Below, in pieces: positions 320 through 24,322 of a stretch of DNA of 64,000 bases. The DNA is from Betaproteobacteria bacterium. GTDB taxonomy: Bacteria > Pseudomonadota > Gammaproteobacteria > Burkholderiales > SG8-41. Made by a program: the position numbers and the translations under genes. Every line of letters begins with the position of its first letter. Within the stretch, counting starts at the first letter, position 1. The stretch spans positions 4,405 through 68,404 of the forward strand of contig CANKUB010000002.1 of assembly GCA_947486575.1 (NCBI GenBank). The letters are read 5' to 3'. A model generated the notes under the pieces. That model was not told the origin of the DNA and made no database searches. It saw nothing but the letters and a program-made list of their open reading frames with translations.

Positions 320-1024
320 ATGAATGACTTATCACAGGCGCTGGCCGCCGCTACCCATTTGGTTGTCAGTGCAGACGCGAATCTGCTTGTGATCGTCAGT
401 CGCAGTCTTCAGGTCAGCTTTGCAGCCGTCTTGATTGCTGCAGCCATAGGCCTGCCAGCGGGCGCAATTCTCGCGACCACACGAATCCCCGGACGCCAGG
501 CGGTGGTTGCGCTGCTCAATGCTTTGATGGGTTTGCCACCGGTGGTGGTAGGACTGCTTGTCTATCTGCTGCTTTCACGTGCCGGGCCACTGGGTGAATT
601 GGGTTTGCTGTTCACGCCGACGGCAATGATCATTGCGCAGGCCGTATTGATTACACCCATTGTTGCAGCCTTGTCGCGACAAGTGATTGAAGACGCGTGG
701 CGTGAGTATGAAGAGCAGCTGCGATCACTCGGTGCAGGCACGATGGCGGCCGCCATAACATTGCTATGGGACACGCGTTTCGCCCTGGCGACGGTGGTAC
801 TGGCAGGGTTCGGCCGCGCGGCTGCGGAAGTGGGTGCCGTGATGATCGTTGGCGGCAATATCGATGGTGTGACACGCGTAATGACCACCGCCATTGCGCT
901 GGAAACCAGCAAAGGGGATTTGCCGCTGGCATTGGCCCTGGGCATTGTTTTGGTGGCGATTATTCTCAGCGTGAATCTGCTGGCCCATTGGGTCAAGCTG
1001 ATTGCGCAGCGACACTACGGGTAA
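320..1024 (+). CDS. tupB: Tungstate ABC transporter permease
   Basis: Hydrophobic ABC permease with LMGLPPVVVGL and EVGAVMIVGGNIDGVTRVMTTAIALETSKG motifs; in an operon with TupC and TupA. Confidence 0.9.
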   Translation: MNDLSQALAAATHLVVSADANLLVIVSRSLQVSFAAVLIAAAIGLPAGAILATTRIPGRQAVVALLNALMGLPPVVVGLLVYLLLSRAGPLGELGLLFTPTAMIIAQAVLITPIVAALSRQVIEDAWREYEEQLRSLGAGTMAAAITLLWDTRFALATVVLAGFGRAAAEVGAVMIVGGNIDGVTRVMTTAIALETSKGDLPLALALGIVLVAIILSVNLLAHWVKLIAQRHYG

Positions 1025-1030
1025 TTCACG

Positions 1031-1735
1031 ATGTTGCCTCTGAAACTTGAAGCGCTGGGCTTTGCCGCGGGTGGGCGTGAGATCATAAAATCGATCACGT
1101 GTGAAATCCATTCAGGTACGCGCACCGTCATTCTGGGGCCTAATGGTGCAGGCAAGAGTGTTCTGATGCGGTTGTGCCACGGCTTGCTGCAACCTACCGC
1201 AGGCCTCGTCACCTGGATGCAGGAAGGCGCCATTCGACGGGTGCGCAGACAGGCGATGGTATTTCAGCGGCCCGTCATGTTGCGCCGCTCCGCTATGGGC
1301 AATGTCATTTACGCCCTCAAACTCGCGGGCATTGCCGCAGAAGAAAGCCGATTGCGGGCTGAAGACGTGCTCGAAGCCGTGGGCCTTGCCAATGTAGCCA
1401 CACGTCCCGCGCGTGTGTTATCCGGCGGCGAACAGCAGCGCCTGGCACTCGCACGTGCATGGGCGCTGGGGCCGGAAGTATTGTTTCTCGACGAGCCGAC
1501 CGCGAACCTGGACCCGAACGCCACACGCGATATTGAAAGCATCATCAGCGCCATACATGCCAGCGGCACCAAGATTATTATGACAACACACAGCCTGGGG
1601 CAAGCGCGCAGGCTCGGTGATGAAATTCTGTTTTTGAGTGATGGGCAGCTGGTAGAGCGTGCGTCGGTCGAAATATTTTTCAGGCAGCCGCAGTCACTCG
1701 AAGCAATAGCTTTTTTGCGCGGGGAACTACCTTGA
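1031..1735 (+). CDS. tupC: Tungstate ABC transporter ATP-binding protein
   Basis: Walker A GPNGAGKS, signature LSGGEQQR, Walker B LFLDEPT. Confidence 0.9.
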   Translation: MLPLKLEALGFAAGGREIIKSITCEIHSGTRTVILGPNGAGKSVLMRLCHGLLQPTAGLVTWMQEGAIRRVRRQAMVFQRPVMLRRSAMGNVIYALKLAGIAAEESRLRAEDVLEAVGLANVATRPARVLSGGEQQRLALARAWALGPEVLFLDEPTANLDPNATRDIESIISAIHASGTKIIMTTHSLGQARRLGDEILFLSDGQLVERASVEIFFRQPQSLEAIAFLRGELP

Positions 1736-2559
1736 TGCTGAAAAATATATCATTTAAAAACATATACTTATGTTTGTTTTTGTTAATCGTGATGAGTGCG
1801 CAGGCGCAGGATAAATTCATCACCGTAGCTTCAACCACATCCACCGAGCAATCTGGTTTATTCAAACATCTGCTGCCGATGTTCGAGAAAAAATCCGGCA
1901 TACAAGTGCGCGTGGTCGCGCTCGGCACCGGGCAGGCACTCGACATGGCGCGGCGCGGCGATGCGGACGTGGTGTTTGTTCACGACAAAGACGCTGAAGA
2001 AAAGTTTCTTGCCGATGGCTTTGGCGTAAGGCGCTTTGAAGTGATGTACAACGATTTTGTATTGGTCGGCCCCAAAAGTGACGCTGCCAGGATTGCAGGC
2101 AGCAAAGACATCATCGCTGCCTATAAAAAACTCGCCGATGCCAAAACACCGTTCACCTCACGCGGCGATAAAAGTGGTACGCACGCCGCCGAGATACGTC
2201 TGTGGAAAGCGGCGAATGTCGATCCGCAATCCGGCAAAGGATCGTGGTATCGCGAAACCGGCTCAGGCATGGGGCCGACGTTGAATACGGCGTCGGCGAT
2301 GAACGCGTATGCGTTTACGGATCGCGGCACATGGCTCGCGTTCAAGAATCGCGGCGAACTTGTGATCGTGGTTGAAGGCGATCAGCGCCTGTTCAATCAA
2401 TACGGCGTGATGCTGGTGAATCCGGCGAAGCACGCGCACGTAAAAAAAGAATTGGGGCAGGCGTTTATCGACTGGCTGGTTTCAGCCGAAGGCCAGCAGA
2501 CGATTGCGAGTTATAAAATCGGCAGCGATCAATTGTTTTTTTCGAACGCAAAAAAATAG
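1735..2559 (+). CDS. tupA: Tungstate-binding periplasmic protein
   Basis: Signal peptide ending AQA; ASTTSTEQSGL, GTGQAL..ARRGDADV.FVH and SRGDKSGTH motifs. ATG overlaps the tupC stop (TGATG). Confidence 0.9.
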   Translation: MLKNISFKNIYLCLFLLIVMSAQAQDKFITVASTTSTEQSGLFKHLLPMFEKKSGIQVRVVALGTGQALDMARRGDADVVFVHDKDAEEKFLADGFGVRRFEVMYNDFVLVGPKSDAARIAGSKDIIAAYKKLADAKTPFTSRGDKSGTHAAEIRLWKAANVDPQSGKGSWYRETGSGMGPTLNTASAMNAYAFTDRGTWLAFKNRGELVIVVEGDQRLFNQYGVMLVNPAKHAHVKKELGQAFIDWLVSAEGQQTIASYKIGSDQLFFSNAKK

Positions 2560-2579
2560 TGCGTCTGGTGGTGAGGTGG

Positions 2580-3230
2580 TTAGGTGAGCAGCGCTTCTTT
2601 CGGTCGCATGCCTTGTTTTTCCATCACGGATTGCAGCACTTCGTAGTAGTGCCAGCCGTTGATGCGGGTTCTGCCCAGAAATAGGGTGGGCGTGCTGGTG
2701 ATGCCGATGCGTTGCGCCTGCTTGACGGCATCCAGCGCACGCTCGGCGTAGTGACCTTCAGCCAATGCCGTTTCAAGTTCGGATGCATCCAGGCCCACGC
2801 GTTCTGCGGCAGAGAGCAGGGTATCGATTTCGCCGATGTCGCCACCTTCTGTCCACATAACATCGTAAATAGCTGTTTTATATGGGAAATCAAGGCCGTA
2901 GTCGCAGGCGAATTCAAGCGCTTCAAAGGCGTGGAAGCTGTATTGCCGCTTTTCGGGATACTGTCGTATGCGCGCAAACTGGTCGGGCGCCATTTCCTTC
3001 ATCCACGCATTGCGGCGCTCGGCTTTGGCTGTAGCATCGGCGCTGTTGTCGCGCGCGCAGCCTTCGGGTGGCGTATCCGGGTGCAGCCAGTGTGGGCGCC
3101 ACATCGGCGTGACGCCGTACTCGCTGGCCAGGCGGTCGATTTGCTCGACTGCCAGAAAGCTGTAGGGGCATACAAAATCCGCAAAAACAGCTACACGAAA
3201 CGGTTCTTTGATTTCAACGGTTGTTGTCAT
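2580..3230 (-). CDS. DsbA/FrnE-like thioredoxin-fold protein (DSBA / HCCA-isomerase family) with CxxS motif
   Basis: FADFVCPYSF near the N-terminus, WRPHWLHP, C-terminal GITSTPTL cis-Pro loop; no signal peptide; GGAG 7 nt before the ATG at 3230. Confidence 0.75.
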   Translation of the reverse strand: MTTTVEIKEPFRVAVFADFVCPYSFLAVEQIDRLASEYGVTPMWRPHWLHPDTPPEGCARDNSADATAKAERRNAWMKEMAPDQFARIRQYPEKRQYSFHAFEALEFACDYGLDFPYKTAIYDVMWTEGGDIGEIDTLLSAAERVGLDASELETALAEGHYAERALDAVKQAQRIGITSTPTLFLGRTRINGWHYYEVLQSVMEKQGMRPKEALLT

Positions 3231-3244
3231 CACATGTCTCCAGT

Positions 3245-4015
3245 TTAAATGGCTCTGGCCATGGCGGCTGCAGCTTCTACCGCGAGACCTTCGCCGGTTA
3301 TACCGCCTTCGAGTGCATCTTTGTCAAACGTCAAGAATGCCACGCTTGCCCCCGCATAGCCAGTGATAATCGGTTCAACGGCCTCGTTACTGCGTACATA
3401 ACGAAATCCCGGCGGGCCGATTTCCTGCCCGCCCACGATAACGGAACCTTCAAGCACAACCTCGTAGCGCCCGAAAACCGGCGCGGGCATTGACAGTGCC
3501 GCGTGCGCTGGCGTGCGCGTAACCACTGCAGCAGGACCAAAATCCGGCGGCATCAACAGTTTGAATGTTCCATCCTCCAGGCCAGGAAATGGCTGCCACT
3601 GACTATCCGACGCCAGTGACGCAAACAGCCGACCGCTCAAATTGATCTGACGCCGCGCGTCGTGATTGGTCATCGCAATAATGCCGCCGGCGCGAGGGTG
3701 CAGCACCAGCATATCGTGGCTGCCCGACACCGCGAACGGGCCGTACGGCATTTTGTGATCGGTATAGTGAATCGCCAGCGATTCCAGATGTTTAACGCCG
3801 CGCGGAAAATCCATCGCGCCGTTGAGCAGCAGTTGAAACTGCGACGTCAGATGCATGTGCGCATAAACGGATGGACAATCGTCGAAGCGGAATCGCATCG
3901 CCTCCGGGCCGCCATCATCGCCGGGCAGCAGCACCTGGCAGGCGAACGCAACGCCTTCGGAAACACTGCGTTTCCAGGGGGCGTTCGCGGAATCGACGAT
4001 GTAGCTTTGTTGCAC
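3245..4015 (-). CDS. Hypothetical cupin-like protein, probably two cupin barrels
   Basis: AHMHLTSQFQLLLNG (HxH) and IHYTDHKMPYGPF in the first half; degenerate second repeat GRYEVVLEGSV; GTG start. Confidence 0.6.
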   Translation of the reverse strand: MQQSYIVDSANAPWKRSVSEGVAFACQVLLPGDDGGPEAMRFRFDDCPSVYAHMHLTSQFQLLLNGAMDFPRGVKHLESLAIHYTDHKMPYGPFAVSGSHDMLVLHPRAGGIIAMTNHDARRQINLSGRLFASLASDSQWQPFPGLEDGTFKLLMPPDFGPAAVVTRTPAHAALSMPAPVFGRYEVVLEGSVIVGGQEIGPPGFRYVRSNEAVEPIITGYAGASVAFLTFDKDALEGGITGEGLAVEAAAAMARAI

Positions 4016-4108
4016 TTGACAGGCGATTTTGATGAGTAAAAACGTATTGTATGTAACCTATGCGATGATTGCAAAAGCAGAAAATTCCAATGGACAGAGA
4101 GGCAGACG

Positions 4109-4489
4109 ATGCGTTATCCAGGACTCACGTTACGCATTCTGGGCGCGGGTAATCCGGCGATGGGGCCCGCAATGGGGCCAGGCAAGGCCGCACTGATTTC
4201 TCAGATCGTAGCCAGTGGTTCGATTTCAGCCGCCGCGCGCAACATGGGCATGTCATATCGACGCGCGTGGCAACTGGTAGAAGCCATCAACGCCAGTTTC
4301 ACTGAGCCGGTGGTGCTGACGGCGATTGGCGGCAAGCGCGGTGGTGGCGCGTCCGTGACAGACTTCGGGCGGCAATTGGTGGCGCAATTTCATGCTATGG
4401 AAGACAAAGCTTCGGCAGCGATTGCGGATGATATCGCCCGGCTGTCGCAGCAATTGCGCAAGCCCATTGCGCGAGGCAAGGTTCGCTAG
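4109..4489 (+). CDS. modE: ModE-family winged-helix regulator (HTH only, no TOBE domains)
   Basis: GPGKAALI...GSISAAARNMGMSYRRAWQLV...GGKRGGGASVT; directly upstream of modA. Confidence 0.85.
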   Translation: MRYPGLTLRILGAGNPAMGPAMGPGKAALISQIVASGSISAAARNMGMSYRRAWQLVEAINASFTEPVVLTAIGGKRGGGASVTDFGRQLVAQFHAMEDKASAAIADDIARLSQQLRKPIARGKVR

Positions 4490-4526
4490 CCCGCACCGCG
4501 TTTTTGATTGCACAATGACAGGGAAC

Positions 4527-4552
4527 TCGTTATATTCTTTTATATATAACGA
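4527..4552. promoter_or_regulatory. ModE operator
   Basis: Perfect inverted repeat TCGTTATAT-N8-ATATAACGA ending 23 bp before modA; matches the established ModE box CGTTATAT...ATATAACG. Confidence 0.9.
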
Positions 4553-4575
4553 TAACGACGGCAACAGATAACTGT

Positions 4576-5370
4576 ATGTTTTTATTGAATAAAGTTTTAT
4601 CTCCTTTATCAGATATATCACTCCTGGCAGCCCTGTGGGTGTTTACCTTGCCTGGCGCATTTGCACAGACAGGCGCGGACACGACCATTTACGCGGCAGC
4701 CAGCCTGAAGGAAGGTCTCGATACTTTGGCCCGGCAATTCGCAAGGCAGGGCGGAGGCAGCGTGCGCATGTCGTATGGCGCCAGTTCTGCGCTTGCACGG
4801 CAAATTGAAAAAGGCGCACCAGCGGATATGTTTATTTCCGCTGATCTTGAGTGGATGTATTATCTCGATCAACGCAAGCTTATACTTGCGGGTTCACGGG
4901 TAAACCTGTTGTCGAACCGGCTGGTGCTGATTGCGCCTGCCGACAGCAAAACGGTTTTGACGATTGCACCAGATTTTCCGCTCGCGGTGGCGCTGGGTGT
5001 GAATCGGCTGGCGATGGCCGATCCAGCCAGCGTGCCCGCCGGCAAGTATGCCAGGGCCGCGCTGCAGAAGCTTGGTGTGTGGCCTGCGATTGCGCCCAAG
5101 CTGGCTCCGGCTGAAAACGTGCGTGCCGCGTTGGCGCTGGTAGCCCGCGGCGAAGCACCGTACGGCATTGTTTATCGCACCGATGCGATTGCCGAGCGCA
5201 AGGTGCGTGTGGTTGGCGAGTTCCCGGCAAACTTGCATCCGCCGATTGTTTATCCGGCAGCGTTGCTCGCCGACAGGCGCTCCAAATCCATTGATGAATT
5301 ACTGCGTTTTTTGCAATCACCCGGAGCGCGCGCGGTGTGGCGTGAGTATGGTTTTGTGGTTGAAGGGTAG
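4576..5370 (+). CDS. modA: Molybdate ABC transporter substrate-binding protein
   Basis: YAAASL, GASSALARQIEKGAPADMFISA, DPASVPAGKYA, AENVRAAL, GIVYRTDA. Confidence 0.95.
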   Translation: MFLLNKVLSPLSDISLLAALWVFTLPGAFAQTGADTTIYAAASLKEGLDTLARQFARQGGGSVRMSYGASSALARQIEKGAPADMFISADLEWMYYLDQRKLILAGSRVNLLSNRLVLIAPADSKTVLTIAPDFPLAVALGVNRLAMADPASVPAGKYARAALQKLGVWPAIAPKLAPAENVRAALALVARGEAPYGIVYRTDAIAERKVRVVGEFPANLHPPIVYPAALLADRRSKSIDELLRFLQSPGARAVWREYGFVVEG

Positions 5371-5372
5371 CC

Positions 5373-6080
5373 GTGATATCGGGCGAAGAAATCGGCATCA
5401 TTTTACTCAGCCTGAAGGTCGCGCTGTGGAGCGTGGCCATCAGCGTGCCGTTCGGTCTTGCGGCGGCGCATGTGTTGGCGCGCCGTGATTTCTGGGGCAA
5501 AAGTCTGTTCGATGCGCTGGTGCATTTGCCGCTGGTGTTGCCGCCAGTGGTGGTGGGTTACTGGTTGTTGCTGCTGTTCGGGCGGCGCGGACCGTTGGGT
5601 GCATTTCTCGAAGAATGGTTTGGTATTGCGGTGGCGTTTCGCTGGAGTGGCGCGGCGATTGCCAGTGCGATCATGAGCTTTCCGTTGATGGTGCGCGCGA
5701 TGCGTTTGTCGATGGAAGCAATTGACCCCAAGCTTGAAGCGGCCGCGCAAACGCTGGGCGCGGGGCGCCTGGGCGTTTTGCTCACCATTACGCTGCCGCT
5801 GGCGATGCCGGGTATTTTGACCGGCATGCTACTGGCGTTTGCGCGTAGCCTCGGCGAATTTGGCGCAACGATTACCTTTGTCTCCAACATTCCGGGCGAA
5901 ACGCAAACGTTGCCGCTGGCGATTTACGCTTTATGGCAGGTGCCGGGTGGCGAATCAGCGGCGCAGCGCTTGTGCGTGTTGTCGTTGATACTCTCGCTGG
6001 CGGCGTTGCTGTTTTCCGAAGCATTGGTGCGTCGCGCAAATCGCCGCATCAAGGGTTACGATGCTGTCCGTCGAAATTAA
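5373..6080 (+). CDS. modB: Molybdate ABC transporter permease
   Basis: HLPLVLPPVVVGY and FARSLGEFGATITFVSNIPGETQTLPLAIY. Confidence 0.95.
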   Translation: MISGEEIGIILLSLKVALWSVAISVPFGLAAAHVLARRDFWGKSLFDALVHLPLVLPPVVVGYWLLLLFGRRGPLGAFLEEWFGIAVAFRWSGAAIASAIMSFPLMVRAMRLSMEAIDPKLEAAAQTLGAGRLGVLLTITLPLAMPGILTGMLLAFARSLGEFGATITFVSNIPGETQTLPLAIYALWQVPGGESAAQRLCVLSLILSLAALLFSEALVRRANRRIKGYDAVRRN

Positions 6081-7140
6081 TCACGAGCAAGGCGACTTCA
6101 GCCTCGACGCTGTGTTTGAATGCGGCGCGGGTGTGACGGCGCTTTTTGGTCGTTCAGGTGCGGGCAAAAGCAGTCTGGTCAACGCCATCGCGGGGCTGAT
6201 ACGTCCGCGCAAAGGCCACGTCGTGTTCGACGGTGAAACGTTGTTTGATTCAGCGCATGGCATCCACGTCCGCGCGGGAAAGCGGCGCTTTGGTTACGTG
6301 TTTCAGGAAGGGCGTTTGTTTCCGCATTTCACTGTTCAGCAAAATCTTGTTTATTCTCACTGGTTTGATCGCGCGTTGTATTCGGCGAGTGATTTCGCAC
6401 ATGTGGTTGAACTGCTGGGCATCGGCGAATTATTGCAGCGTCGCCCAGCGCAATTATCCGGCGGCGAAAAGCAGCGCGTCGCCATTGGCCGCGCGCTGCT
6501 GGCCAAACCTCGCTTGCTGTTGCTGGATGAGCCGCTGGCCTCGCTCGACGCCGAACGCAAGCATGAAATTTTGCGCTATCTGCGTTTGCTGCGCGACGAG
6601 ACGCGCATCCCGATGATTTACGTCAGCCACGCGGTCGAGGAGGTGCTGGAGCTTGCCGATCAAGTGGTGCTGCTGGCGTCGGGCCGCGTGGTTGCTAGCG
6701 GTAGTGTAGAAGCGGTGATGGGACGGCCTGATCTGCGCCCATCGTCTGGCGTGTTTGAAGGCGGCGCGGTGATTGAGACGCACGTTATCGGCATTGATCT
6801 CGAAGACGGTCTTGCCACGCTGGGTTTTGATGGCGGCACGCTGACGGTTGGCAATTTTGATGCACAAGCGGGTGAGCGTGTGCGGGTGCGCATACGCGCA
6901 CGCGAAGTGTCAATTGCGCTGGTGCCGCCGCAGCAGATCAGCATTCAGAATATTTTGCGTGGCAGGATTGCTGCGATTGATGAAGCGCGCAGTGGTCGCG
7001 TCACGGTGATGATTGCAGTGGGTGCCGCAATGCTGCGTTCAGGCATTACACGGCGCTCCGCGCGCCAGCTTGCGTTGGTGCCGGGAATGGATGTCTACGC
7101 GTTGATCAAGGCGATATCCCTTGACCGGCACAGTGGATAG
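6061..7140 (+). CDS. modC: Molybdate ABC transporter ATP-binding protein with C-terminal TOBE domain
   Basis: GRSGAGKS, GYVFQEGRLFPH, LSGGEKQR, LLLDEPLASLD, C-terminal ITRRS...L.PG..VYALIKA. Confidence 0.95.
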   Translation: MLSVEINHEQGDFSLDAVFECGAGVTALFGRSGAGKSSLVNAIAGLIRPRKGHVVFDGETLFDSAHGIHVRAGKRRFGYVFQEGRLFPHFTVQQNLVYSHWFDRALYSASDFAHVVELLGIGELLQRRPAQLSGGEKQRVAIGRALLAKPRLLLLDEPLASLDAERKHEILRYLRLLRDETRIPMIYVSHAVEEVLELADQVVLLASGRVVASGSVEAVMGRPDLRPSSGVFEGGAVIETHVIGIDLEDGLATLGFDGGTLTVGNFDAQAGERVRVRIRAREVSIALVPPQQISIQNILRGRIAAIDEARSGRVTVMIAVGAAMLRSGITRRSARQLALVPGMDVYALIKAISLDRHSG

Positions 7141-7149
7141 CCGTAGAAT

Positions 7150-7175
7150 AATAATCAATAAAAACAAATACTTAC
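7150..7175 (+). repeat. Copy of the dispersed AT-rich IHF-box-like junction motif
   Basis: AATAATCAATAAAAACAAATACTTAC; 23/26 identical to the copies at 43502-43527 (-) and 60345-60370 (+). Confidence 0.7.
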
Positions 7176-7189
7176 ATTCACTTCTTGTC

Positions 7190-7687
7190 ATGAAAATATT
7201 TGGCTTTGCCGGTTACAGCGGCAGTGGCAAAACCACGCTGATCGAGAAATTGATTCCGTTATTCACGGCGCGCAATCTTAAAGTGTCGTTAATCAAGCAC
7301 GCGCATCACACCTTTGATGTGGATACGCCGGGCAAAGATTCATATCGTCATCGGCACGCGGGTTGCGCTGAAGTGCTGGTCACGTCGTCGCGGCGCTGGG
7401 TACTGATGCACGAATTGCGCGGCGAGGCCGAACCGGATTTGAATGAGCAGATCATGCACTTGTCGCCGTGCGATTTGCTGCTGGTTGAGGGTTTCAAGCA
7501 TGATCCGATTCCAAAGATCGAGGTCTATCGTGCGGTGACGGATGAGCCGTTGTTGCATCCGCATGACGCAAACGTGGTGGCGGTGGCGAGTGACGCGCCG
7601 TTAAACACTGCGCTGCCGCAGCTTGATCTTAACCAGCCGCAGCAAATTGCAGACTTTATGTTGAAGCATCTGGGATTTGACGCATAA
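7190..7687 (+). CDS. mobB: Molybdopterin-guanine dinucleotide biosynthesis protein B
   Basis: MKIFGFAGYSGSGKTTLIEKL, IKHAHH.FDVD.PGKDSYRHR, DLLLVEGFK; start moved to ATG 7190. Confidence 0.93.
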   Translation: MKIFGFAGYSGSGKTTLIEKLIPLFTARNLKVSLIKHAHHTFDVDTPGKDSYRHRHAGCAEVLVTSSRRWVLMHELRGEAEPDLNEQIMHLSPCDLLLVEGFKHDPIPKIEVYRAVTDEPLLHPHDANVVAVASDAPLNTALPQLDLNQPQQIADFMLKHLGFDA

Positions 7688-7694
7688 TATCGAT

Positions 7695-7949
7695 ATGATT
7701 ACCTTGCTTTATTTTGCACGACTGCGTGAAGCCTTTGGCATGGCGTCTGAACGAATCGTATTGTCTGCGGATACCCGTACGCTTGAAGGCGTACGCACAA
7801 TGCTGGCGGCACGCGGCGGCGCGTGGGCGCACGAGTTAACCGCGGGGCGTGCATTTCGTGCGGCGGTTAATCAATCGATTGCCAGCGGCGATACACCGAT
7901 AAAAGACGGTGATGAAGTGGCGTTTTTTCCGCCGGTGACAGGGGGCTGA
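7695..7949 (+). CDS. moaD: Molybdopterin synthase sulfur carrier subunit
   Basis: LYFARLRE at the N-terminus and DGDEVAFFPPVTGG (C-terminal Gly-Gly). Confidence 0.95.
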   Translation: MITLLYFARLREAFGMASERIVLSADTRTLEGVRTMLAARGGAWAHELTAGRAFRAAVNQSIASGDTPIKDGDEVAFFPPVTGG

Positions 7950-7955
7950 GAAAAC

Positions 7956-8417
7956 ATGGCTGTTCGTGTGCAAGCCGAAGATTTTGATGTCAGCGCGGAA
8001 ATCGCCACGCTGCGCAAAGATAATCCGCGCATCGGTGCGATTGCGAGCTTCATTGGCGTGGTGCGGGATTTGAACGAAGGCGACAGCGTTGCGGAGATGA
8101 CGCTGGAGCATTATCCCGGCATGACGGAAAAATCCGTCGAGGAAATTATCATGCAGGCGCGTGGCAGCTGGCAGGTAATGGATGCGCTGGTAATCCATCG
8201 CATTGGCACATTAAAGCCGCTGGATCAGATTGTGCTGGTGGTGGTGACCAGCGCCCATCGAGGCGACGCGTTTGCAGCCTGCGAGTTCATCATGGATTTT
8301 CTGAAAACGCGCGCGCCATTCTGGAAAAAAGAACAAACCGGCAAGGGTGCGCGCTGGGTTGATGCGCGGGCCGCTGACGATGCAGCGGCGGAACGCTGGC
8401 AGAAACAAGGTGAGTAG
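7956..8417 (+). CDS. moaE: Molybdopterin synthase catalytic subunit
   Basis: LEHYPGMTEK, HRIG.L, SAHRGDAF.ACEFIMDFLKTRAPFWKKE. Confidence 0.95.
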   Translation: MAVRVQAEDFDVSAEIATLRKDNPRIGAIASFIGVVRDLNEGDSVAEMTLEHYPGMTEKSVEEIIMQARGSWQVMDALVIHRIGTLKPLDQIVLVVVTSAHRGDAFAACEFIMDFLKTRAPFWKKEQTGKGARWVDARAADDAAAERWQKQGE

Positions 8418-8850: not shown

Positions 8851-11800
8851 CTAAGGTTTACGTGACTTAGAGGCTGTAGTTTGCCATTCGCCGTCGAGTC
8901 GTAACTTCAGCGGGGTAGTGGGGCCAAGGTCGATGGCTGGCTTACCTGCTGGCGACGTAAGCGCCGTGCCTGCAACACCTGCAACAGGCACCGGCGCTTT
9001 GGATGCGGCAAAGTAGGCGCCACCACCGACAGCGGCCACCAAGGCAGCAGCGGCCAATACTCGCTTGGACAGCGCGCGCCGCCTGTCACCCGCCAAAAGG
9101 TCGCGTGGTTTTCCGAGCAGTGCCTTTTCAGCCTTTTCGCGGCTTGCCGTTGCTTTTGCCAAAGTTTGCTGGGCACGGATGCGAGCCTGTTCTTCCGTGT
9201 AAGCGCGGTCTTTCGCCTCTTTCGCCTGACGCGCGACTTCTTCCGCAGCAGCTTCTTCCTTGCTGCGCTCTTCAGCGGCCATGCGCGCCTGCTCATCCGC
9301 CGCTTCCCGTTCTACAGCCAGGTGTGAGGCGCTGGATTCAGCTTGAAAGCGCTGCTCTGCTGCCAGTTTTGCGGCTTCTTCTTCGATCTGCCTTTGTCTG
9401 GCAGCATCGATGGCAGCGGTTTCCGCATCCGCACGCGCCTGAGCTTGTGAGCGCAACGCTTCTTCTGCATTTTTTGTTGCGAGTGCGGCAGCCGCAAGCG
9501 CGTGCTCGGCCTCGGCACGTGTGGTGGCGGCTTGCGTGGCTTCTGCTTCAGCGGCTACCAGCGCGCTGGATTTTGCGGCAGTTTCCTGCTCGGCGGCTAT
9601 GCGCGCGGCGGTGGCGCGCTGTGCCGCAACCTCAACTTCTGCAAGCGCCAGAGACTGTTCGGCGGCAGTAATTTCGGCGGCTGCACGCTGTGCTACGGCG
9701 TCCTGCGCCGCTTGTTCGCTTGCTTCGCGATGGCGCAACGCTTCAATCGCTGTTGCTTCAGCATTAACGCGAGTCTGTATTGCTGCGTGCAGCGTTTCTT
9801 CGGCGTTTTTCGCTTTGAGCGCAGCGGCTGCAAGCGCGTGATCGGCCGCCGCTCGGGCTGTGGCAGCTTGCGTCGCTTCTGCTTCGGCGGCAATCAGCGA
9901 GCTCGAACTTGCGGCAGTGTTCTGCTCGGCGGCTATGCGCGCAGTGGTGGCTTGTTGCACAGCGGCTTCCGCTTCTGCAAGCGCTCTAGACTGTTCAGCG
10001 GCCATAATTTCGGCGGCTGCACGCTGTGCAGCGGCGTCCAGCGCCGCCCGTTCCCTGGCCTCGCGTTGGCGCAACGCTTCAATCGCTGTTGCTTCTGCAT
10101 TGACGCGAATTTGTATTGCCGTGTGCAGCGTTTCTTCGGCGTTTTTCGTTTCGAGTGCAGCGGCTGCAAGCGCGTGATCGGCGTCCGCTCGGGCTGTGGC
10201 AGCTTGCGTGGCTGCTGCTTCAGCATCTATCAGCAATGTGGATTTTGCGGCGGTTTCCTGCTCAGCGGCTATGCGTGCTGCTGTGGCATGTTGTGCCGCG
10301 GCCTCTGCATCGGCACGCGCCCTGGCTTGGTCGGTGGCGGCACGTTCGGCTACCGCGCGTTGCTCCGCAACGTGCTGCGCGGCGCGTTCGCCGGCCTCGC
10401 GCTGGTGGGCGGCTTCAAGCGCCTGGGCTTCCACGGCTGAGCGTTCCTGCGCTTGCAGGAGCAAGGCTTCTTCTTCGGCTTTGTGTTCAGCTGCCAGGCG
10501 TTCAAGTTCCTGTTCAGCTGCCAGCTTTTGCTGTGCGGTATGTTGTAACTCTGCTTCGGCTTTGGCCTGCGTTTTTGTCGCGCGTTTCGCTGCCGCGTTT
10601 TCTGAGATGATTTTCTGCGTGGAGTCGAGCGCCAACAGGTTGGATTGCGTGGCGCTCTTGGCTTCTTCAACCAAACGCCGTGTTTGCGCAATGATCGCTT
10701 CCACCTTGGCGCGTGCGCTCATGCTTTGATGCGCTTCGGCTTCGGCTGCTTCGCGCTGCTGTAGCAGTTGCAGCGCTTCGTTCTCGTTGTGCGCGCGCGT
10801 TTCGGCGGCACGCGCGGCTTCGGCCTCTGCAGCGGCACGGGCTTGCGCCTGCTCGGTGGCGGCACGTTCGGCTTCCACGCGCCGCGCAGCCTGAAGCTCA
10901 GCCTCTTGTTCCACGTGGGCGCGCGCCTGAGCCAGTTCCGTGGCATCACGCTCAGCCTCGGCCCGCTCCTTGGCATGGCGTTCGGCTTCCTGTTCGCTTT
11001 GCTGTCGTGCTTCGGCGGACTGAATGGCAGCTTGTTCGAGATGTTCGCGTTCTTTCGCCGCCGTCAGCAGACTGGCTTCGGCATCGGCGCGTTTTTGCGC
11101 TTCTATGCGTAGCGCGTCTTCGGCTTGCTGGCGCTCAGCCGCCGCTATGGCAGCGGCACGTTCGGCCTCTGCCCGTTGTTGAATGGTGCGGGCGGTTTCG
11201 GCTTCTGCCTGGGCTTGTTGTTGTACCAGTGCCTGCGCCTCGGCTTCTTTGTCGGTGAGTTGTGTTGCCTCTTGCAACGCGAGCAAATTGGTTTGTGTGC
11301 GGCTGTTGGCGCGTTCGATTTGCGCCAGGGCATGGGCAATGATGGCCTCGGCCTTGTTGCGCGCTTCTACGTGTTCTGTGGTTTGCTTTTCAGCGGCCTG
11401 ACGCGCTGTGGATAGGCGGGCTGCTTCGATTTCGGCGGTAGCGCGTTCTTCGGCGGCTTTTCTTGCGGCAGCCTCGGCAGTTGCGCGTGCCTGGGCCTGG
11501 TCAAGCAAGGCTTGTTCGGCTTCAGCGCGTTTGTGCGCCAGCCGTGCGGCTTCTTGTTCGGCAGTAGTACGGGCTTCGGCCGTCCGCTTGAAGGCTTCTT
11601 CGGCCAGTTGTTTTTCGCTTGCTGAACGCACAGCCTCAAGCTCGGCTTGATTCCGTTGACGCGCGATACGCAAGGCGCGTTCTTCGTCGGCGGTGGCTTT
11701 TTGCAGCTTTGCCACGCCTTCGGGGTCGCGGTTTGCTGCTGGATTGACTGGCGCTAATGAACGCTTGTCGGGCGCACTTGGCGAAGCAAAATCCAGGTCA

Positions 11801-12849
11801 ACGAGATCCCCCAGCTGATCGGCGTAGGTGTCGCGTATCGAACGCATCTCGGGCAGCACTTGCTTGAGGGCTGTAACGATTTGCGGGTCGAATTGCGTGC
11901 CCGACGCACGCTCAATCAGCGAGACAGCGCCATCGATGGGCAGTGGTTCCTGGTGAAAGCGAGTGACGGTCAACGCCTCGAAGGTATCCACCAAAGCCAT
12001 CACGCGGCCCGGCCACGGAATATCTTCGCCTTTGAGTCCCTTGGGATAGCCGTTGCCATCCCAGCGCTCGTGGTGGGTGAGCGCGAGCGTGCGCGCCAGC
12101 GCCAGCAGCGGGTCGTCGTGTACGCCGATGATTTCAGCGCCGATTTCCGCATGTTTTTTCATCTGCTCCCACTCGGGGGCGGAAAGGCCGCTGCTTTTGT
12201 GGAGTACCTGCGCAGGCACGCCGAGCTTGCCGATGTCGTGCAGCGGCGCAGCCTTCATCATCAAATCGGACAGCGTTGGCTGGGCACCGGCGGCGTCGGC
12301 GAGCAGGCGCGCATAGTGGCCTAGACGAACCACGCGGTTGCCGACGGCTGTGCTTTCGTGGTACTCCATGGTGCGCGCCAGACGGCGCACTAGTTGCACG
12401 CGGGCGGTTTCGAGCTCGGCGGTACGCTCGCGCACGAGGGATTCCTGCTCACGGCGGCGGTACGATAGCTCAAGGTGGTTGCGTACGCGTGCGCGCAGCA
12501 CCTCGGCGTTAAGGGGTTTGATGATGTAATCGGCGGCGCCCAGCTGGAAGCCTTTGACGATATCGGCGGGCTCATCTTTGGAGGTCAGAAAGATGACCGG
12601 TATTTCAGCGGTGGCAGCGGTAATCTTCAATGCCCTGCAGACGTCATGCCCGCTGGCACCGGGCATTTCCACATCAAGCAGGACCAGATCGGGAACGGGT
12701 TTTTCGAGTGCGCGCTTTAACGCCGAGCGACCATCTGAAGCGGGGCGGATAGTGTAGGTATCCTGCAGCACTGACGTGACCAGATCACGGATGTCTTCCG
12801 TATCGTCGACGACGAGAATGGTGAGTTTTGCGGGTGACTCATTCGCCAT
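8851..12849 (-). CDS. Receiver + HD-GYP domain protein fused to a very long Ala/Glu/Gln/Arg-rich helical stalk and a C-terminal transmembrane anchor
   Basis: REC motifs ILVVDD, DLVLLDVEMP, FLTS, YIIKP; HD-GYP motifs LHDIGK and HHERWDGNGYPKGLKGEDIP; about 860 low-complexity helical residues; RRRALSKR followed by VLAAAALVAAVGGGAYFAA. Confidence 0.85.
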   Translation of the reverse strand: MANESPAKLTILVVDDTEDIRDLVTSVLQDTYTIRPASDGRSALKRALEKPVPDLVLLDVEMPGASGHDVCRALKITAATAEIPVIFLTSKDEPADIVKGFQLGAADYIIKPLNAEVLRARVRNHLELSYRRREQESLVRERTAELETARVQLVRRLARTMEYHESTAVGNRVVRLGHYARLLADAAGAQPTLSDLMMKAAPLHDIGKLGVPAQVLHKSSGLSAPEWEQMKKHAEIGAEIIGVHDDPLLALARTLALTHHERWDGNGYPKGLKGEDIPWPGRVMALVDTFEALTVTRFHQEPLPIDGAVSLIERASGTQFDPQIVTALKQVLPEMRSIRDTYADQLGDLVDLDFASPSAPDKRSLAPVNPAANRDPEGVAKLQKATADEERALRIARQRNQAELEAVRSASEKQLAEEAFKRTAEARTTAEQEAARLAHKRAEAEQALLDQAQARATAEAAARKAAEERATAEIEAARLSTARQAAEKQTTEHVEARNKAEAIIAHALAQIERANSRTQTNLLALQEATQLTDKEAEAQALVQQQAQAEAETARTIQQRAEAERAAAIAAAERQQAEDALRIEAQKRADAEASLLTAAKEREHLEQAAIQSAEARQQSEQEAERHAKERAEAERDATELAQARAHVEQEAELQAARRVEAERAATEQAQARAAAEAEAARAAETRAHNENEALQLLQQREAAEAEAHQSMSARAKVEAIIAQTRRLVEEAKSATQSNLLALDSTQKIISENAAAKRATKTQAKAEAELQHTAQQKLAAEQELERLAAEHKAEEEALLLQAQERSAVEAQALEAAHQREAGERAAQHVAEQRAVAERAATDQARARADAEAAAQHATAARIAAEQETAAKSTLLIDAEAAATQAATARADADHALAAAALETKNAEETLHTAIQIRVNAEATAIEALRQREARERAALDAAAQRAAAEIMAAEQSRALAEAEAAVQQATTARIAAEQNTAASSSSLIAAEAEATQAATARAAADHALAAAALKAKNAEETLHAAIQTRVNAEATAIEALRHREASEQAAQDAVAQRAAAEITAAEQSLALAEVEVAAQRATAARIAAEQETAAKSSALVAAEAEATQAATTRAEAEHALAAAALATKNAEEALRSQAQARADAETAAIDAARQRQIEEEAAKLAAEQRFQAESSASHLAVEREAADEQARMAAEERSKEEAAAEEVARQAKEAKDRAYTEEQARIRAQQTLAKATASREKAEKALLGKPRDLLAGDRRRALSKRVLAAAALVAAVGGGAYFAASKAPVPVAGVAGTALTSPAGKPAIDLGPTTPLKLRLDGEWQTTASKSRKP
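9400..10310. repeat. Intragenic tandem repeat, 336-bp (112-aa) unit, about 2.7 copies; boundaries approximate
   Basis: GCAAGCGCGTG(A/C)TCGGC recurs at 9494, 9830 and 10166, exactly 336 bp apart; the peptide AT(A/T)ARIAAEQ...HALAAAAL..KNAEE occurs three times. Confidence 0.85.
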
Positions 12850-14656: not shown

Positions 14657-15718
14657 GTGATAAGCCCCATGATCGATCTTGCAGAAATTTTGCGACGTGT
14701 GCCTTTGTTCGCCGGACTGGATGCCGACGACTTGCGCTATGTGTTGAGTGTCGCGCGGCAGATCAGCTATGCGCCGGGCGTGTTGCTGGTGCGTCAGGGG
14801 CAACCTGCCGATAGCGCGCTAATCATGGAGCGTGGCCATGCGCAAGTGGTCAATGCTTTGCCCGGCGGTGGCGAAACGGTGGTGGCTGATGTCGGGCCCG
14901 GCAGTGTGCTGGGCGAGACCGCGCTGCTCGATAGCGGGGTGCGCATGGCCAATGTGGTGGCGCGCGCGCCGACCGCGTGTTTGAGCATGGAACGCGACGC
15001 TTTCCGCATGCTGATCGCGCAGGGGAATCAGGCGGTGCTGGCGATTAATCATCGCATTACGCTGACGTTGTGCCAACGGTTGCGCGAATTGAACGGCAAA
15101 ATACTGGCAGTGAGCGCACCGGAAAATCTGCCCCTGGCAGCAGTGCGCCATACGCACGAGCGGCGTGCCTGTGATTTTGACTATCGCGCTTTTCTCGGCG
15201 TGCTGCCCGCCTTGCATCATTTCAGCCCGGAAGATATTGATGAATTGCTGAGTGCCGCTCAGGTGTTTGACGTGCCGCGTGGCGCGCGCTTGTTTGAAGC
15301 GGGCACACCGAGTGAGGCGTGTTATGTGGTGGTGCGTGGTGCGCTAGAAATCAGCCGTGATCAAAACGGCGCGCACCGGCGTATCGGCATACTGGGGCCG
15401 GGGCGCCTGTGCGGTGTGCTCGGCTTGATCGAGGGGCAGCGGCATAGCATGTCCGCAACGGCGCGTGAGCATGCGACGCTGCTGGAGTTGCCGCGTGCTG
15501 CATTTATGCGGTACTACAAAAATGAGTACAGCGGCGGCGCGCGTGGCGCGCTCAAATTCCAGCGGGTGATTAATCAGGAATTATTACAATCGCTGTCGCG
15601 CACCAACAATCACTTGACGAGTTTGATCAGTCAGGCGCGCATCCGCAATCACGTGCAGCATGCGGATGACCTGCAACTTGCGCTGGTGGAGCAGGAGTGT
15701 CGCACCGGCGTGCGCTGA
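14657..15718 (+). CDS. Stand-alone protein with two cyclic-nucleotide-binding domains
   Basis: Domain 1: LRRVPLFAGL...LVRQGQPAD...GPGSVLGETALLDSGVRMANV. Domain 2: LFEAGTPSE.CYVVVRG...LGPGRLCG. No HTH or catalytic domain seen. Confidence 0.8.
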   Translation: MISPMIDLAEILRRVPLFAGLDADDLRYVLSVARQISYAPGVLLVRQGQPADSALIMERGHAQVVNALPGGGETVVADVGPGSVLGETALLDSGVRMANVVARAPTACLSMERDAFRMLIAQGNQAVLAINHRITLTLCQRLRELNGKILAVSAPENLPLAAVRHTHERRACDFDYRAFLGVLPALHHFSPEDIDELLSAAQVFDVPRGARLFEAGTPSEACYVVVRGALEISRDQNGAHRRIGILGPGRLCGVLGLIEGQRHSMSATAREHATLLELPRAAFMRYYKNEYSGGARGALKFQRVINQELLQSLSRTNNHLTSLISQARIRNHVQHADDLQLALVEQECRTGVR

Positions 15719-21737: not shown

Positions 21738-22429
21738 CTAGTTTGGCTGAGTTGTATTTTTTGAAACCAGATTGTGAAACCCAGTGTCCGCCATAAGATT
21801 CCGAACGTTGGCGGCAAAGGCATTTCTTAGAAAAATTGGAAACCCGCCGTTAATCGTTTCCTCACTACGATACGAACCTTCTGTTGTTACTTCATAGATC
21901 ACCTTGCTGACGCTGCGGCTATAGATTTGCCAAGCCACACGCATTAACGTCGCCCCCTTTGCCGCAGTAGTATTTCCAATATTCGCATTTGGACTACCGG
22001 AAAAAGGGAAACAAAGTTGGTTCTCGACTTTAGTTATCAATCCAGCAACGATAAATTCTGCTTTTTCAACAGTGGAATCCCCAAACAAGGCGTATGGATC
22101 TCCTACTACCGGATATTTGCGTAGTTCTAGTTCTTTTCTGAGGGCGTCGGTGAATTCTTCGTCAGTAACATTAAGTTGTCCACCGCGCCACCCAAGGGTT
22201 CTTCCTGGGAAACAGCCCCATCCATATTGAATTTGACCAGTAATTTCCCCGAGAGGAAGTTTGGCAATTACTTTTCGAAATGAAATGGGTTGCGCGTTAG
22301 TCACCTCTTTGATCTCAAGTGGCTTTTTGTTTCGACCGTAGTAACGGTGCCGCCAGGAACGCCACAACCGCTTAATAGGAACAACGTAAAGCTCGCAATG
22401 TATCGTTGTCGATAAGTCTCTAATTTCAT
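21738..22429 (-). pseudogene. AT-rich lipoprotein gene split by a 1-nt frameshift (or sequencing error)
   Basis: GGAGG then ATG 22429 gives MKLETYRQRYIASFTLFLLSGC (lipobox) GVPGGTVTTVETK. The roughly 195-aa body continues in the -1 frame from the A5 run at 22324-22328. Confidence 0.7.
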
Positions 22430-22471
22430 TGTATTTACACCTCCCTTTTGGAGCTATAGACGCTATACAAT

Positions 22472-22613
22472 TTAGTAAGACTTGGGCAACCCAACACCTT
22501 CTCCGCAATAAAACAAAAAATCATCTGCGAGCTAACCGGCACCAGCCGCAGAATCATCGCTTCCCGGAAATACCGTTCGATGTGAAATTCCTTGGTTTAG
22601 CCCATGTCGCCGT
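22472..22613 (-). repeat. Decayed second copy of the last ~47 codons of the acyl-CoA dehydrogenase gene (direct repeat of 23156-23298)
   Basis: Manual alignment gives 16 substitutions and 1 gap over 143 nt, including a premature TAA and a frameshift. Confidence 0.9.
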
Positions 22614-22618
22614 ACATC

Positions 22619-22846
22619 CTACGCCACCGCATATCGTCTAACGTCAACCTGAGCACCCGCCTGCGACAACCGTTCTGCGGTATTTAGCAGCTCGGTAGTG
22701 ACCTTTGAATCGACGTAGTCTTCACCACAGTTCGGGCAAACCTGCGCGGGCACTTCGCGTATCACAAAGGTCGCGCCGTCACGCTCCAATGTAACCGTGG
22801 TGATGCCTGGTCGAGTATCCGCTTGTTTGCACACTACGCATTTCAT
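22619..22846 (-). CDS. YgiT-type zinc-finger protein (MqsA N-terminal-like antitoxin)
   Basis: MKCVVCK...VIREVPAQVCPNCGEDY; ATGA overlap with the upstream toxin gene. Confidence 0.85.
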   Translation of the reverse strand: MKCVVCKQADTRPGITTVTLERDGATFVIREVPAQVCPNCGEDYVDSKVTTELLNTAERLSQAGAQVDVRRYAVA

Positions 22847-23118
22847 GGCTTTCTCCTTCGAAATTCGTCGTCCCATAGCGTGGGATCGGGTTCATAAACG
22901 GTAACGATAATTTTTTCATCTTCAACGGCATTATAGGCTGCTACTACGTGCAACGGACGGTTGCTGCGCCAGCCGAGCAGCAGTCGGCTTGGATACGGTT
23001 GGTCGTCGGGATAAGCTGCGATTTCCTCCCCTTCGGTCAGCAACTCGGCAACGTCCGCATCCGTGATGCGTCGCTCGAACATGCGTCGGACGGCATGCAC
23101 GCGATAGGTTATTTTCAT
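22843..23118 (-). CDS. DUF4258 family putative toxin
   Basis: HAVRRMFERRI, YPDDQPYPSRLLLG, RPLHVV, IIVTVYEPDP..W; start ATG 23118. Confidence 0.85.
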   Translation of the reverse strand: MKITYRVHAVRRMFERRITDADVAELLTEGEEIAAYPDDQPYPSRLLLGWRSNRPLHVVAAYNAVEDEKIIVTVYEPDPTLWDDEFRRRKP

Positions 23119-23155
23119 CGAGCGGTATCTTGTCTGCGCATTTGTAAGTAGTAGG

Positions 23156-24322
23156 TTAATAAGACTTCGGTAACCCCAACACCTTCTCCGCAATAAAACA
23201 AAGTATCATCTGCGAGCTTACCGGCGCCAGCCGCGGAATCATCGCCTCGCGAAAATAACGCTCGATGTGAAATTCCTTGGCATAGCCCATGCCGCCGTGG
23301 GTGAGCATTGCGGTTTCGCAGGCTTTGAAGCCCGCTTCGCCTGCCAGATATTTCGAGGCGTTGGCTTCGGCGCCGCAGGGTTGCTGGGTGTCGTAGAGCC
23401 AAGCCGCTTTGTAAGTCATCAGTTCGGCGGCTTCGAGTTCCATCCAGCGTGCGGCCAGCGGGTGCTGTATGCCCTGATTCTGGCCGATAGGGCGGTCGAA
23501 CACGATACGTTCCCGCGCATACGCCGCGCCGCGCTTTAAGGCCGCTTTGCCCAACCCCACGGCTTCGGCTGCGACCAGGATACGCTCCGGGTTGAGGCTG
23601 TGCAGGATGTAGCGGAAGCCTTTGCCTTCTTCGCCAATGCGATCTTCGACTGGCACCTTGAGGCCGTCGATGAACACTTGATTGGAGTCGACGGCTTTGC
23701 GGCCCATTTTTTCGATTTCGTGCACTTCGACGTGCTTGCGATCCATGTCGGTGTAGAACAGGGTGAGGCCGTCGATGGGGCGCTGGCTTTCTTCAATCGG
23801 CGTGGTGCGCGCGAGCAGCAGAATTTTATTGGTGACCTGCGCGGTGGTGGTCCAGATTTTCTGGCCCGACACGATGTAGTGATCGCCGTGGCGCGTGGCC
23901 TTGGTTTTGAGCATGGCCGTATTGAGCCCGGTATTGGGCTCGGTGACGCCGAAGCAGGCTTTGTCTTTGCCCTCGATCATCGGTGGCAGAAAGCGCTTTT
24001 TCTGCTCTTCGCTGCCGTAGACCACCACGGAATGCAGGCCGAAGATGTTCATGTGCAAGGCCGACGCGCCGGAAAATCCTGCGCCGGATTCGGAAATGGC
24101 TTGCATCATCAGCGCGGCTTCGGTGATGCCAAGGCCCGCGCCGCCGTACTCCTGAGGCATGGCAATGCCGAGCCAGCCGTCACGCGCGAAGGCGGCGTGG
24201 AAGTCCTGCGGGAAACCGCCTTCGCGGTCTTTTTTCAGCCAGTAGGCGTCATCGAAATGCGCGCAGATTTTTTCGATGGCGGCGCGGATGGTGCGCTGGT
24301 CTTCGGTTAGGGAAAAATTCAT
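23156..24322 (-). CDS. Acyl-CoA dehydrogenase family protein
   Basis: MNFSLTEDQ, PQEYGGAGLG, FGVTEPNTG, GQKIWTT, LNPERI, HGGMGYAKEFHIERYFRE. Confidence 0.93.
   Translation of the reverse strand: MNFSLTEDQRTIRAAIEKICAHFDDAYWLKKDREGGFPQDFHAAFARDGWLGIAMPQEYGGAGLGITEAALMMQAISESGAGFSGASALHMNIFGLHSVVVYGSEEQKKRFLPPMIEGKDKACFGVTEPNTGLNTAMLKTKATRHGDHYIVSGQKIWTTTAQVTNKILLLARTTPIEESQRPIDGLTLFYTDMDRKHVEVHEIEKMGRKAVDSNQVFIDGLKVPVEDRIGEEGKGFRYILHSLNPERILVAAEAVGLGKAALKRGAAYARERIVFDRPIGQNQGIQHPLAARWMELEAAELMTYKAAWLYDTQQPCGAEANASKYLAGEAGFKACETAMLTHGGMGYAKEFHIERYFREAMIPRLAPVSSQMILCFIAEKVLGLPKSY

Follow-up and report, generated by a model that had tools for sequence, protein, structure and literature searches.

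An RpfG-type signalling head with an altered HD-GYP pocket, carried by an unannotated family of predicted long rods

The gene, its protein and its relatives

The gene studied here lies at 8851..12849 on the minus strand of the window, the whole stretch of 64,000 nucleotides (nt) that was analysed from a contig of a Betaproteobacteria bacterium. It is a single open frame encoding a protein of 1332 amino acids (aa), P0001, in which a receiver domain (REC) is followed by an altered HD-GYP domain, a linker, a stalk of 14-residue repeats, a transmembrane (TM) helix and a tail. A Pfam scan of the protein matched Response_reg at aa 11-123 (E 7e-25) and HD_5 at aa 168-324 (E 8e-27), and found no match in the rest. 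The neighbours are crcB (convergent), moa and mod genes, a glyoxalase-family gene and TctC-type binding proteins. The original prediction, made from the letters of the window, had described an RpfG-like REC and HD-GYP module on a long helix rich in Ala, Glu, Gln and Arg, then a basic patch, a hydrophobic helix and a tail of about 50 aa forming a C-terminal membrane anchor, and all of these parts stood, the anchor as a predicted one.

The features are given below in protein order. Counts of heads refer to an alignment of 111 family heads (36 fused to a stalk, 50 split from it and 25 lone) with eight canonical controls, and PmGH (PDB 4mcw) is the best sequence and fold match of the head.

8851..12849, minus strand: whole gene (P0001), 1332 aa, from REC to tail (open reading frame (ORF), Pfam, composition).
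12481..12819, minus strand: receiver domain, aa 11-123, with the complete phosphorylation set D15, D16, D59, T89 and K111 (Pfam; D59 and K111 in 111 of 111 heads).
12364..12507, minus strand: long helix, aa 115-162, joining REC to HD-GYP at the position of a signalling helix and overlapping the end of REC (AlphaFold2 model).
11827..12363, minus strand: HD-GYP domain, aa 163-341, with HD, H233, HHExxDGxGYP and D288 present, the E-T-G-x-H loop changed to ESTAVGNR and Glu at the D308 site (alignment).
12334..12336, minus strand: R172, at the site of the PmGH metal ligand H189 (4mcw alignment; 110 of 111 heads have Arg here, and all 8 canonical controls have His).
11788..11826, minus strand: motif Y-x-D-x-L-G-D-x-x-x-L-D-F after the HD-GYP domain, aa 342-354, conserved in fused and split heads (alignment).
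11710..11787, minus strand: variable Pro-rich linker, aa 355-380, of low predicted local distance difference test score, which is the gene boundary in the split form (AlphaFold2 model, split-gene comparison).
9115..11709, minus strand: stalk, aa 381-1245, about 60 units of A-E-x-x-A/L-x-x-x-A-x-x-R-x-x, a predicted helix and likely coiled coil (repeat analysis; aa 381-549 modelled).
11278..11352, minus strand: first register break, aa about 500-524, richer in Ile and Leu (repeat analysis).
10588..10704, minus strand: second register break, aa about 716-754, repeating the first (repeat analysis; lag-216 peak).
9453..10405, minus strand: tandem super-repeat of 336 nt (112 aa, 8 x 14), 2.8 copies with 78% matches (tandem-repeat search).
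9061..9084, minus strand: basic patch, aa 1256-1263, ahead of the hydrophobic helix, which suggests an N-in orientation by the positive-inside rule (sequence).
9004..9060, minus strand: predicted TM helix, aa 1264-1282 (hydropathy 1.93; an equivalent in 32 of 35 homologues).
8854..9003, minus strand: Pro-rich tail of 50 aa, predicted to be periplasmic (sequence, homologues).
8893..8913, minus strand: tail motif P-L-x-L-R-L-D/E, aa 1313-1319, conserved in fused, split and headless stalk proteins (homologue comparison).

The same layout recurs in relatives, and the gene is a single real one. The head was found in 9 of 20 congeneric genomes, at 67-86% identity across the head and the stalk start, and a tenth congener (G005) holds the 3' end of the gene. 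Complete open frames occur in five congeners, with 902, 970, 1214, 1333 and 1459 aa, the longest containing a run of N. Wherever the 3' end lies on the contig in congeners, the layout stands beside crcB. Inspection of database homologues covered 35 of the 120 listed, namely the ones that match REC and HD families and no others; they are 739-1379 aa long, 32 of them share the layout and end in a hydrophobic helix, and 18 of those 32 carry a tail motif of the P/A-L-x-L-R/K-L-D/E type. The layout is also found on a 1.7-Mb contig (P0015). The junction between HD-GYP domain and stalk is bridged by contigs of runs X10, X11 and X16, none of them marked as a source of the assembly, the last from a different study and with 14 differences, and one possible-source contig spans 8400-12657. 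The family is narrow, since only 18 of 401 genomes drawn from the order match the head at E 1e-85, and of the seven of those that were read four have the altered pocket (one of them fused) and three are ordinary RpfG-type genes.

Among the nine head-bearing congeners, one copy is cut short by the end of its contig and three are each interrupted by one in-frame TAG (L023, L024 and L025, in G012, G001 and G019, at aa 363, 397 and 300). Two of the three stops lie just downstream of the head and could release it in soluble form. Recoding of TAG was considered as their cause and judged unlikely, as the stops are single and at differing positions, and the G012 copy also has a 6-aa deletion and a later frameshift.

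The altered pocket of the head

The loop D183-x-E185-T-x-x-H189 of PmGH aligns with E165-S-T-A-V-G-N-R172, so that D183 becomes Glu, the E-T-G loop with E185 is lost and H189 becomes Arg. The D308 site is Glu in 111 of 111 heads and Asp in all eight controls. Of the eight PmGH ligands E185, H189, H221, D222, H250, H276, H277 and D305, six are kept. Retention across the 111 heads is high at the remaining positions: D205 and D288 in all, H233 and K208 in 110 each, H259 in 109, H260 in 108 and H204 in 96. At the two guanine-binding positions one Arg is usually kept at one of them (R297/Q300 here, Q/R in most others). A crude dN/dS (ratio of nonsynonymous to synonymous substitution rates) of the head against eight congeners is 0.02-0.07. 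Its identity to C210, an ordinary RpfG-type gene that the source genome also carries, is 39%.

With HHERWDGNGYP at aa 259-269, which fits the RpfG-family motif HHExh(D/N)GxGYP, and with an N-terminal REC followed by HD-GYP, the head is by its motifs and domain order a member of the RpfG family. The family's two-domain soluble form ends in HD-GYP, and this protein has about 980 extra residues and a TM helix, which makes the whole protein an extended variant. HD and HHE ligands are kept, so the head lacks the loss of HD and HHE that marks degeneration of the HnoD/DvhD type; it may nevertheless work like HnoD or DvhD, its degeneration being of a different kind.

In PmGH, the H189A change essentially abolishes activity and D183A and D308A act similarly (PMC4159591). 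D308 hydrogen-bonds H189 in that enzyme (PMC4159591), so the His-to-Arg and Asp-to-Glu changes look coupled. With one catalytic histidine lost, the head is likely more a switch than a bulk enzyme, and its pocket points to a likely weak or absent bulk phosphodiesterase activity. The head is not an ordinary RpfG phosphodiesterase.

Further changes were seen in some relatives. The HD motif reads YD in 13 of 25 lone heads (for example L052, L056, L064 and L166). A divergent fused subgroup (P0027-P0044, L069 and L072, 46-48% identity) has Ala for the REC Thr and further pocket decay, and most of its members have the TM helix at the extreme C-terminus and no tail motif.

The repeat stalk, its split form and its history

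The stalk stretch of about 865 residues is 33% Ala, 15.5% Glu, 9.5% Gln and 9.2% Arg (aa 386-1250). The original prediction had called it free of Pro and Gly. No Pro occurs from aa 377 to 1247, and this part holds; Gly occurs at aa 378, 820 and 1246, so the part on Gly fails by the one internal residue, at 820. The top hydrophobic 19-mer, aa 1264-1282, has a Kyte-Doolittle value of 1.93. At lags 14 and 28 the stalk reaches self-identities of 0.293 and 0.309, where 500 shuffles gave at most 0.20; lag 7, at 0.133, falls below background, and lags 11 and 18 do not rise above it. In the 14-residue unit Glu is present in 93% and Arg in 72%, with Ala at positions 1, 5, 8 and 9, and Arg-to-Glu i,i+4 pairs number 70 against 19 expected. 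By established geometry, a constant 14-residue phase would fit two coiled-coil heptads better than a free helix, and the stalk is likely a coiled coil. An AlphaFold2 single-chain model of aa 1-550 (predicted template modelling score 0.37) shows aa 381-549 as one helix behind a disordered linker and carries no information on stalk packing. The length of 130 nm is arithmetic (870 residues x 0.15 nm), not a measured length.

Stalk length varies about threefold among relatives, and free stalk genes encode 597-897 aa (33 of 34 closed ORFs). As length varies freely between relatives, the stalk is not a conserved ruler, and the set-distance spacer that the original prediction had proposed does not agree with the congeners, the homologues or the free stalks.

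Genome and metagenome contigs were also scanned, and of the 160 loci found 120 belong to the altered-head family; most heads at these loci are unfused. A stalk-like ORF follows 54 of 95 closed unfused heads (77 of the 95 have at least 400 nt downstream). One of the 54, a frameshifted fusion, was set aside; of the other 53 stalk ORFs, 50 start at -4, overlapping the stop of the head by 4 nt. The split stalk proteins begin M-S-K-L-x-D-x-L and share the 14-mer profile, hydrophobic helix and tail motif with the fused stalk; the profile match between split and fused stalks is 95% (E 4e-8), in low-complexity sequence. Because head and stalk are so often overlapping neighbour genes, they are likely one tethering module. 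The original prediction had staked itself on homologues not always being two separate ORFs: often they are two, but coupled by the overlap, which strengthens the link between head and stalk.

The operon of the split form was counted at loci with 5 kb of flank, the fused set being nine loci, three of them stop-bearing congeners. Its order is PAS-kinase, REC, REC-GGDEF-EAL, head, stalk and kup. A multi-PAS histidine kinase precedes the split pair at 22 of 24 loci, a single REC likewise at 22 of 24 and a REC-GGDEF-EAL gene at 18 of 24, and kup follows the pair in 25 of 25. At the fused loci kinase, single REC, GGDEF-EAL and kup were each found in 0 of 9. The absence of an adjacent histidine kinase, which the original prediction had noted, was borne out, with none among the five Pfam-scanned neighbours nor, by eye, among the remaining ORFs of the window. 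The fused copy thus stands outside the operon and its kinase must lie elsewhere; a search of the source genome found no cognate one. None of the 14-residue period, the 112-aa super-repeat, the altered pocket or the split operon had been reported in the original prediction.

In an IQ-TREE tree of 56 rows, from which rows more than 80% identical within a class were removed, the altered heads form one group (support 100/100) and the 12 fused heads one clade (96/89), a picture that FastTree gives as well on 119 rows. The fused group is sister to the split group, with weak support for the node on the split side (81/25). G041 holds both a fused and an unfused copy, so the two forms are paralogues; the other four genomes tested have one copy each. 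Two apparent further joins were seen. P0020 and L129 have a split-clade head joined to a different, Lys/Glu-rich coiled coil without a TM helix, apparently an independent fusion, and P0020 sits among split heads in the IQ-TREE tree. In P0197 a split-type head continues in frame into a stalk of the split type that still has its start motif, either a recent fusion or an assembly error.

Searches with the stalk itself returned little. The split stalk proteins matched no Pfam model (four scanned) or NCBIfam model (one scanned), and in an atlas search the stalk matched clusters of hypothetical proteins only, with a recognition score under the reliable range. A tail profile run against 1.84 billion representatives gave 74 matches, mostly short fragments, and the eight that were read comprise three stalk ends and five unrelated chance matches. 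Word searches recovered six proteins with the stalk N-terminus and one with the C-terminal region; low-complexity sequence crowded both results, so the rod may carry other heads as well. The stalk start motif presumably resembles the N-termini of GspB/ExeB.

Several stalk-like genes without the signalling head were also noted. G001, G009 and G017 have headless paralogues, about 930-1590 aa in length, that share the start motif, the repeat, the TM helix and the tail, and G012 has a shortened one. The source genome has a second 14-residue-repeat stalk gene on C69 (L200:71-4021), which lacks a signalling head. Its open frame of 1317 aa reaches the contig edge at the 5' end and includes a TM helix and a P-V-L-R-L-D tail. 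Its congeneric counterparts L235 and L236 begin with the split-stalk start motif, and all three adjoin the same ABC-transporter and esterase-like genes. Another source-genome protein (P0122, 1137 aa, L201:6445-9855 on C160) has a small globular N-terminus, a long Ala/Glu/Arg stalk, a TM helix and a beta-rich C-terminal domain; it had no Pfam match, and a weak TolA match lay under the cut-off. Its C-terminal domain looks AsmA-like.

The remaining observations concern the neighbourhood in the window, where five neighbours were Pfam-scanned and most further labels were assigned by eye. A tungstate/molybdate ABC transport and molybdopterin synthesis cluster lies at 320-8417 (MoaE by Pfam, other labels by eye), and the moa genes and crcB are syntenic with the fused gene in congeners. 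A protein with tandem cyclic-nucleotide-binding domains at 14657-15718 is near the fused gene in five of the nine head-bearing congeneric loci. The region 21738-23193 has a lower GC content (48% at 22-23 kb) and holds a 256-aa unannotated ORF and a 116-aa ORF, the latter presumably of the kind of DUF4258-type small toxin-antitoxin genes.

Proposed working, rival explanations and known systems

The RpfG-type head is carried by an unannotated rod family, and the whole module matches no family in the libraries searched. We give about an even chance to the reading that the altered head is a regulator switched by phosphorylation, with weak catalysis or none, which a predicted two-chain coiled-coil rod tethers to the inner membrane so that c-di-GMP signalling is local. 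The rod would be a parallel dimer, anchored in the inner membrane by its C-terminal helix, N-in by the positive-inside rule and with a short periplasmic tail. Where head and rod are separate genes, the free head would dock on the N-terminal end of the rod, and fusion would make this tether covalent and permanent. The head would dimerise or be re-set once D59 is phosphorylated, and the switched head may bind cyclic di-GMP (c-di-GMP) and act on a GGDEF-EAL partner by analogy with HnoD acting on HnoB; there is precedent for inactive RpfG regulators in HnoD, an inactive REC-HD-GYP protein that inhibits the REC-EAL protein HnoB (10.1101/2021.11.05.467447, section 16). The alternating L-x-L-x-L strand of the tail may dock on a periplasmic or envelope partner and so fix the location, the rod acting as a tether and a surface for recruitment, with few constraints on its length, rather than as a ruler.

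A number of observations weigh against this regulator reading, the interrupted and missing copies and the lack of a cognate kinase above all against a central role. Ten of the 20 congeners have no match to the gene, and three of the nine head-bearing congeneric copies are interrupted by TAG. In four of the nine lone loci that were read (L039, L042, L044 and L058) the stalk gene is cut to a remnant with its first and last residues in frame; with L156 these remnants are 21-158 aa long and retain, in frame, both the start that overlaps the head and the closing L-x-L-E/D motif. Given the interrupted and missing genes and the heads kept with remnant stalks, the rod is dispensable. The homology of the split and fused stalks rests on compositionally biased sequence, and the source genome has no close orthologue of the operon kinase (best 33%) or of the single REC (best 34%). 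Xanthomonas RpfG has neither the E185 nor the H189 equivalent, and a similar Lysobacter RpfG is reported to be robustly active (10.1101/2021.11.05.467447, section 8), so the head may have kept its activity.

The head may instead be an active two-metal phosphodiesterase for c-di-GMP, pGpG or another dinucleotide, with the Arg replacing one metal and the rod placing a local nucleotide sink at a membrane site. In keeping with this, purifying selection maintains the catalytic Lys and six of the eight metal ligands of PmGH, RpfG proteins without the first His have been reported as weak or active, and the inactive DvhD and HnoD lose HD and HHE themselves, which the altered-head family mostly keeps. 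The loss of activity in the PmGH mutants argues the other way, as do the bulky, near-invariant Arg at a ligand site and the further change to YD in about half of the lone heads, and an active enzyme is possible though unlikely. It is also conceivable that the main part is played by the rod, as a cytoskeletal or polar landmark protein that assembles itself and resembles FrzS/AglZ or PodJ, the head doing no more than gating this assembly or recruiting clients. The headless paralogues in congeners and on C69 of the source genome suit such a rod, and so do the precedents of FrzS, whose coiled coil directs polar localisation while its pseudo-receiver is a dock (PMC9811614), and of PodJ, whose coiled coils recruit clients (PMC9684454). 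Against it, Pfam and NCBIfam models gave no link to FrzS, AglZ or PodJ (their sequences were not compared directly), the gene is patchy and often lost, and no association with flagellin was found, with 4 of 11 gene-bearing and 4 of 10 other genomes of the genus matching a model that also matches shorter-scoring paralogues. MshEN ATPases, present in 26 of 26 genomes, are uninformative. We regard a rod as main actor as quite improbable.

The fusion could be incidental, a read-through over the 4-nt overlap of co-transcribed genes without physical partnership. The in-frame join of P0197 and the three stop-bearing congeneric copies, two of them stopped just after the head, are what such a history might leave behind; the fused clade, however, is deep (heads 47-90% identical), moved away from the operon in one piece and retains the tail motif, and P0020 was apparently joined to a different coiled coil independently, so this explanation seems very improbable. 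An assembly artefact joining two genes, a worry of the original prediction to which the tandem repeats in the stalk lend some substance, is already refuted by homologues sharing the layout (nine congeneric genomes, with crcB beside it wherever the 3' end is on the contig, P0015 and the junction-bridging contigs), and its chance is close to nil.

The regulator reading can be extended to a two-part module in which a c-di-GMP-sensing pseudo-enzyme would sit at the cytoplasmic tip of a 50-150 nm rod that crosses the inner membrane and hooks an envelope partner by its strand. This strut or tether, gated by nucleotide and phosphorylation, would link the PAS-kinase/c-di-GMP operon to the envelope and to Kup potassium uptake (turgor), and the rods would be a new filament family with several paralogues per genome. 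As a whole this extension is speculative and unlikely.

The original prediction did not recognise the architecture from any characterised protein, and no match turned up in the libraries and literature searched. No description of REC, HD-GYP, long rod and TM helix in one layout was found in the literature titles and abstract openings searched. The word 'coiled' is absent from the main text of an HD-GYP review (10.1101/2021.11.05.467447), whose tables, figures and supplements could still list the layout. The same review reports few cases of local c-di-GMP signalling by HD-GYP proteins. The conserved fused and split pair, with His-to-Arg and Asp-to-Glu in about 110 of 111 members, offers a direct test of the need for the first His and of the role of the Arg. 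It also exposes long, membrane-anchored 14-residue-repeat rods, unannotated and unseen by Pfam and NCBIfam, in uncultured Burkholderiales-labelled soil and freshwater genomes. The split operon names the likely kinase and the partner enzyme, which makes it possible to reconstruct the system in a laboratory host.

The closest known system is the RpfG family (Xanthomonas RpfG, Thermotoga TM0186 and, as reference, PmGH), which shares REC, helix and HD-GYP with HD, HHExxDGxGYP and RxxxxxD. The head departs from it in its pocket, and the HD-GYP domain, typically C-terminal in a protein (10.1101/2021.11.05.467447), is here internal, with the rod and a C-terminal membrane anchor after it. In Shewanella HnoD and Desulfovibrio DvhD, too, the HD-GYP domain is altered and belongs to a module that includes a kinase and another c-di-GMP enzyme, as in the split operon here. 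DvhD is an inactive HD-GYP receptor of c-di-GMP, and HD and HHE are lost in both proteins (PMC13090378), whereas here both are kept and the first His is changed; the available parts of the sources describe a long rod for neither.

The likeness of the stalk to FrzS, AglZ and PodJ is by analogy only. The periplasmic part of Caulobacter PodJ is large, unlike the predicted one of about 50 aa here, and here the signalling head is fused or co-encoded. PodJ is, like the rod, a coiled-coil scaffold with a TM domain, and it recruits signalling clients (PMC9684454). Myxococcus FrzS and AglZ share with the fused protein an N-terminal receiver and an extended C-terminal coiled coil, but theirs are pseudo-receivers, and neither HD-GYP nor a C-terminal TM helix is described for them in the part of the source available (PMC9811614).

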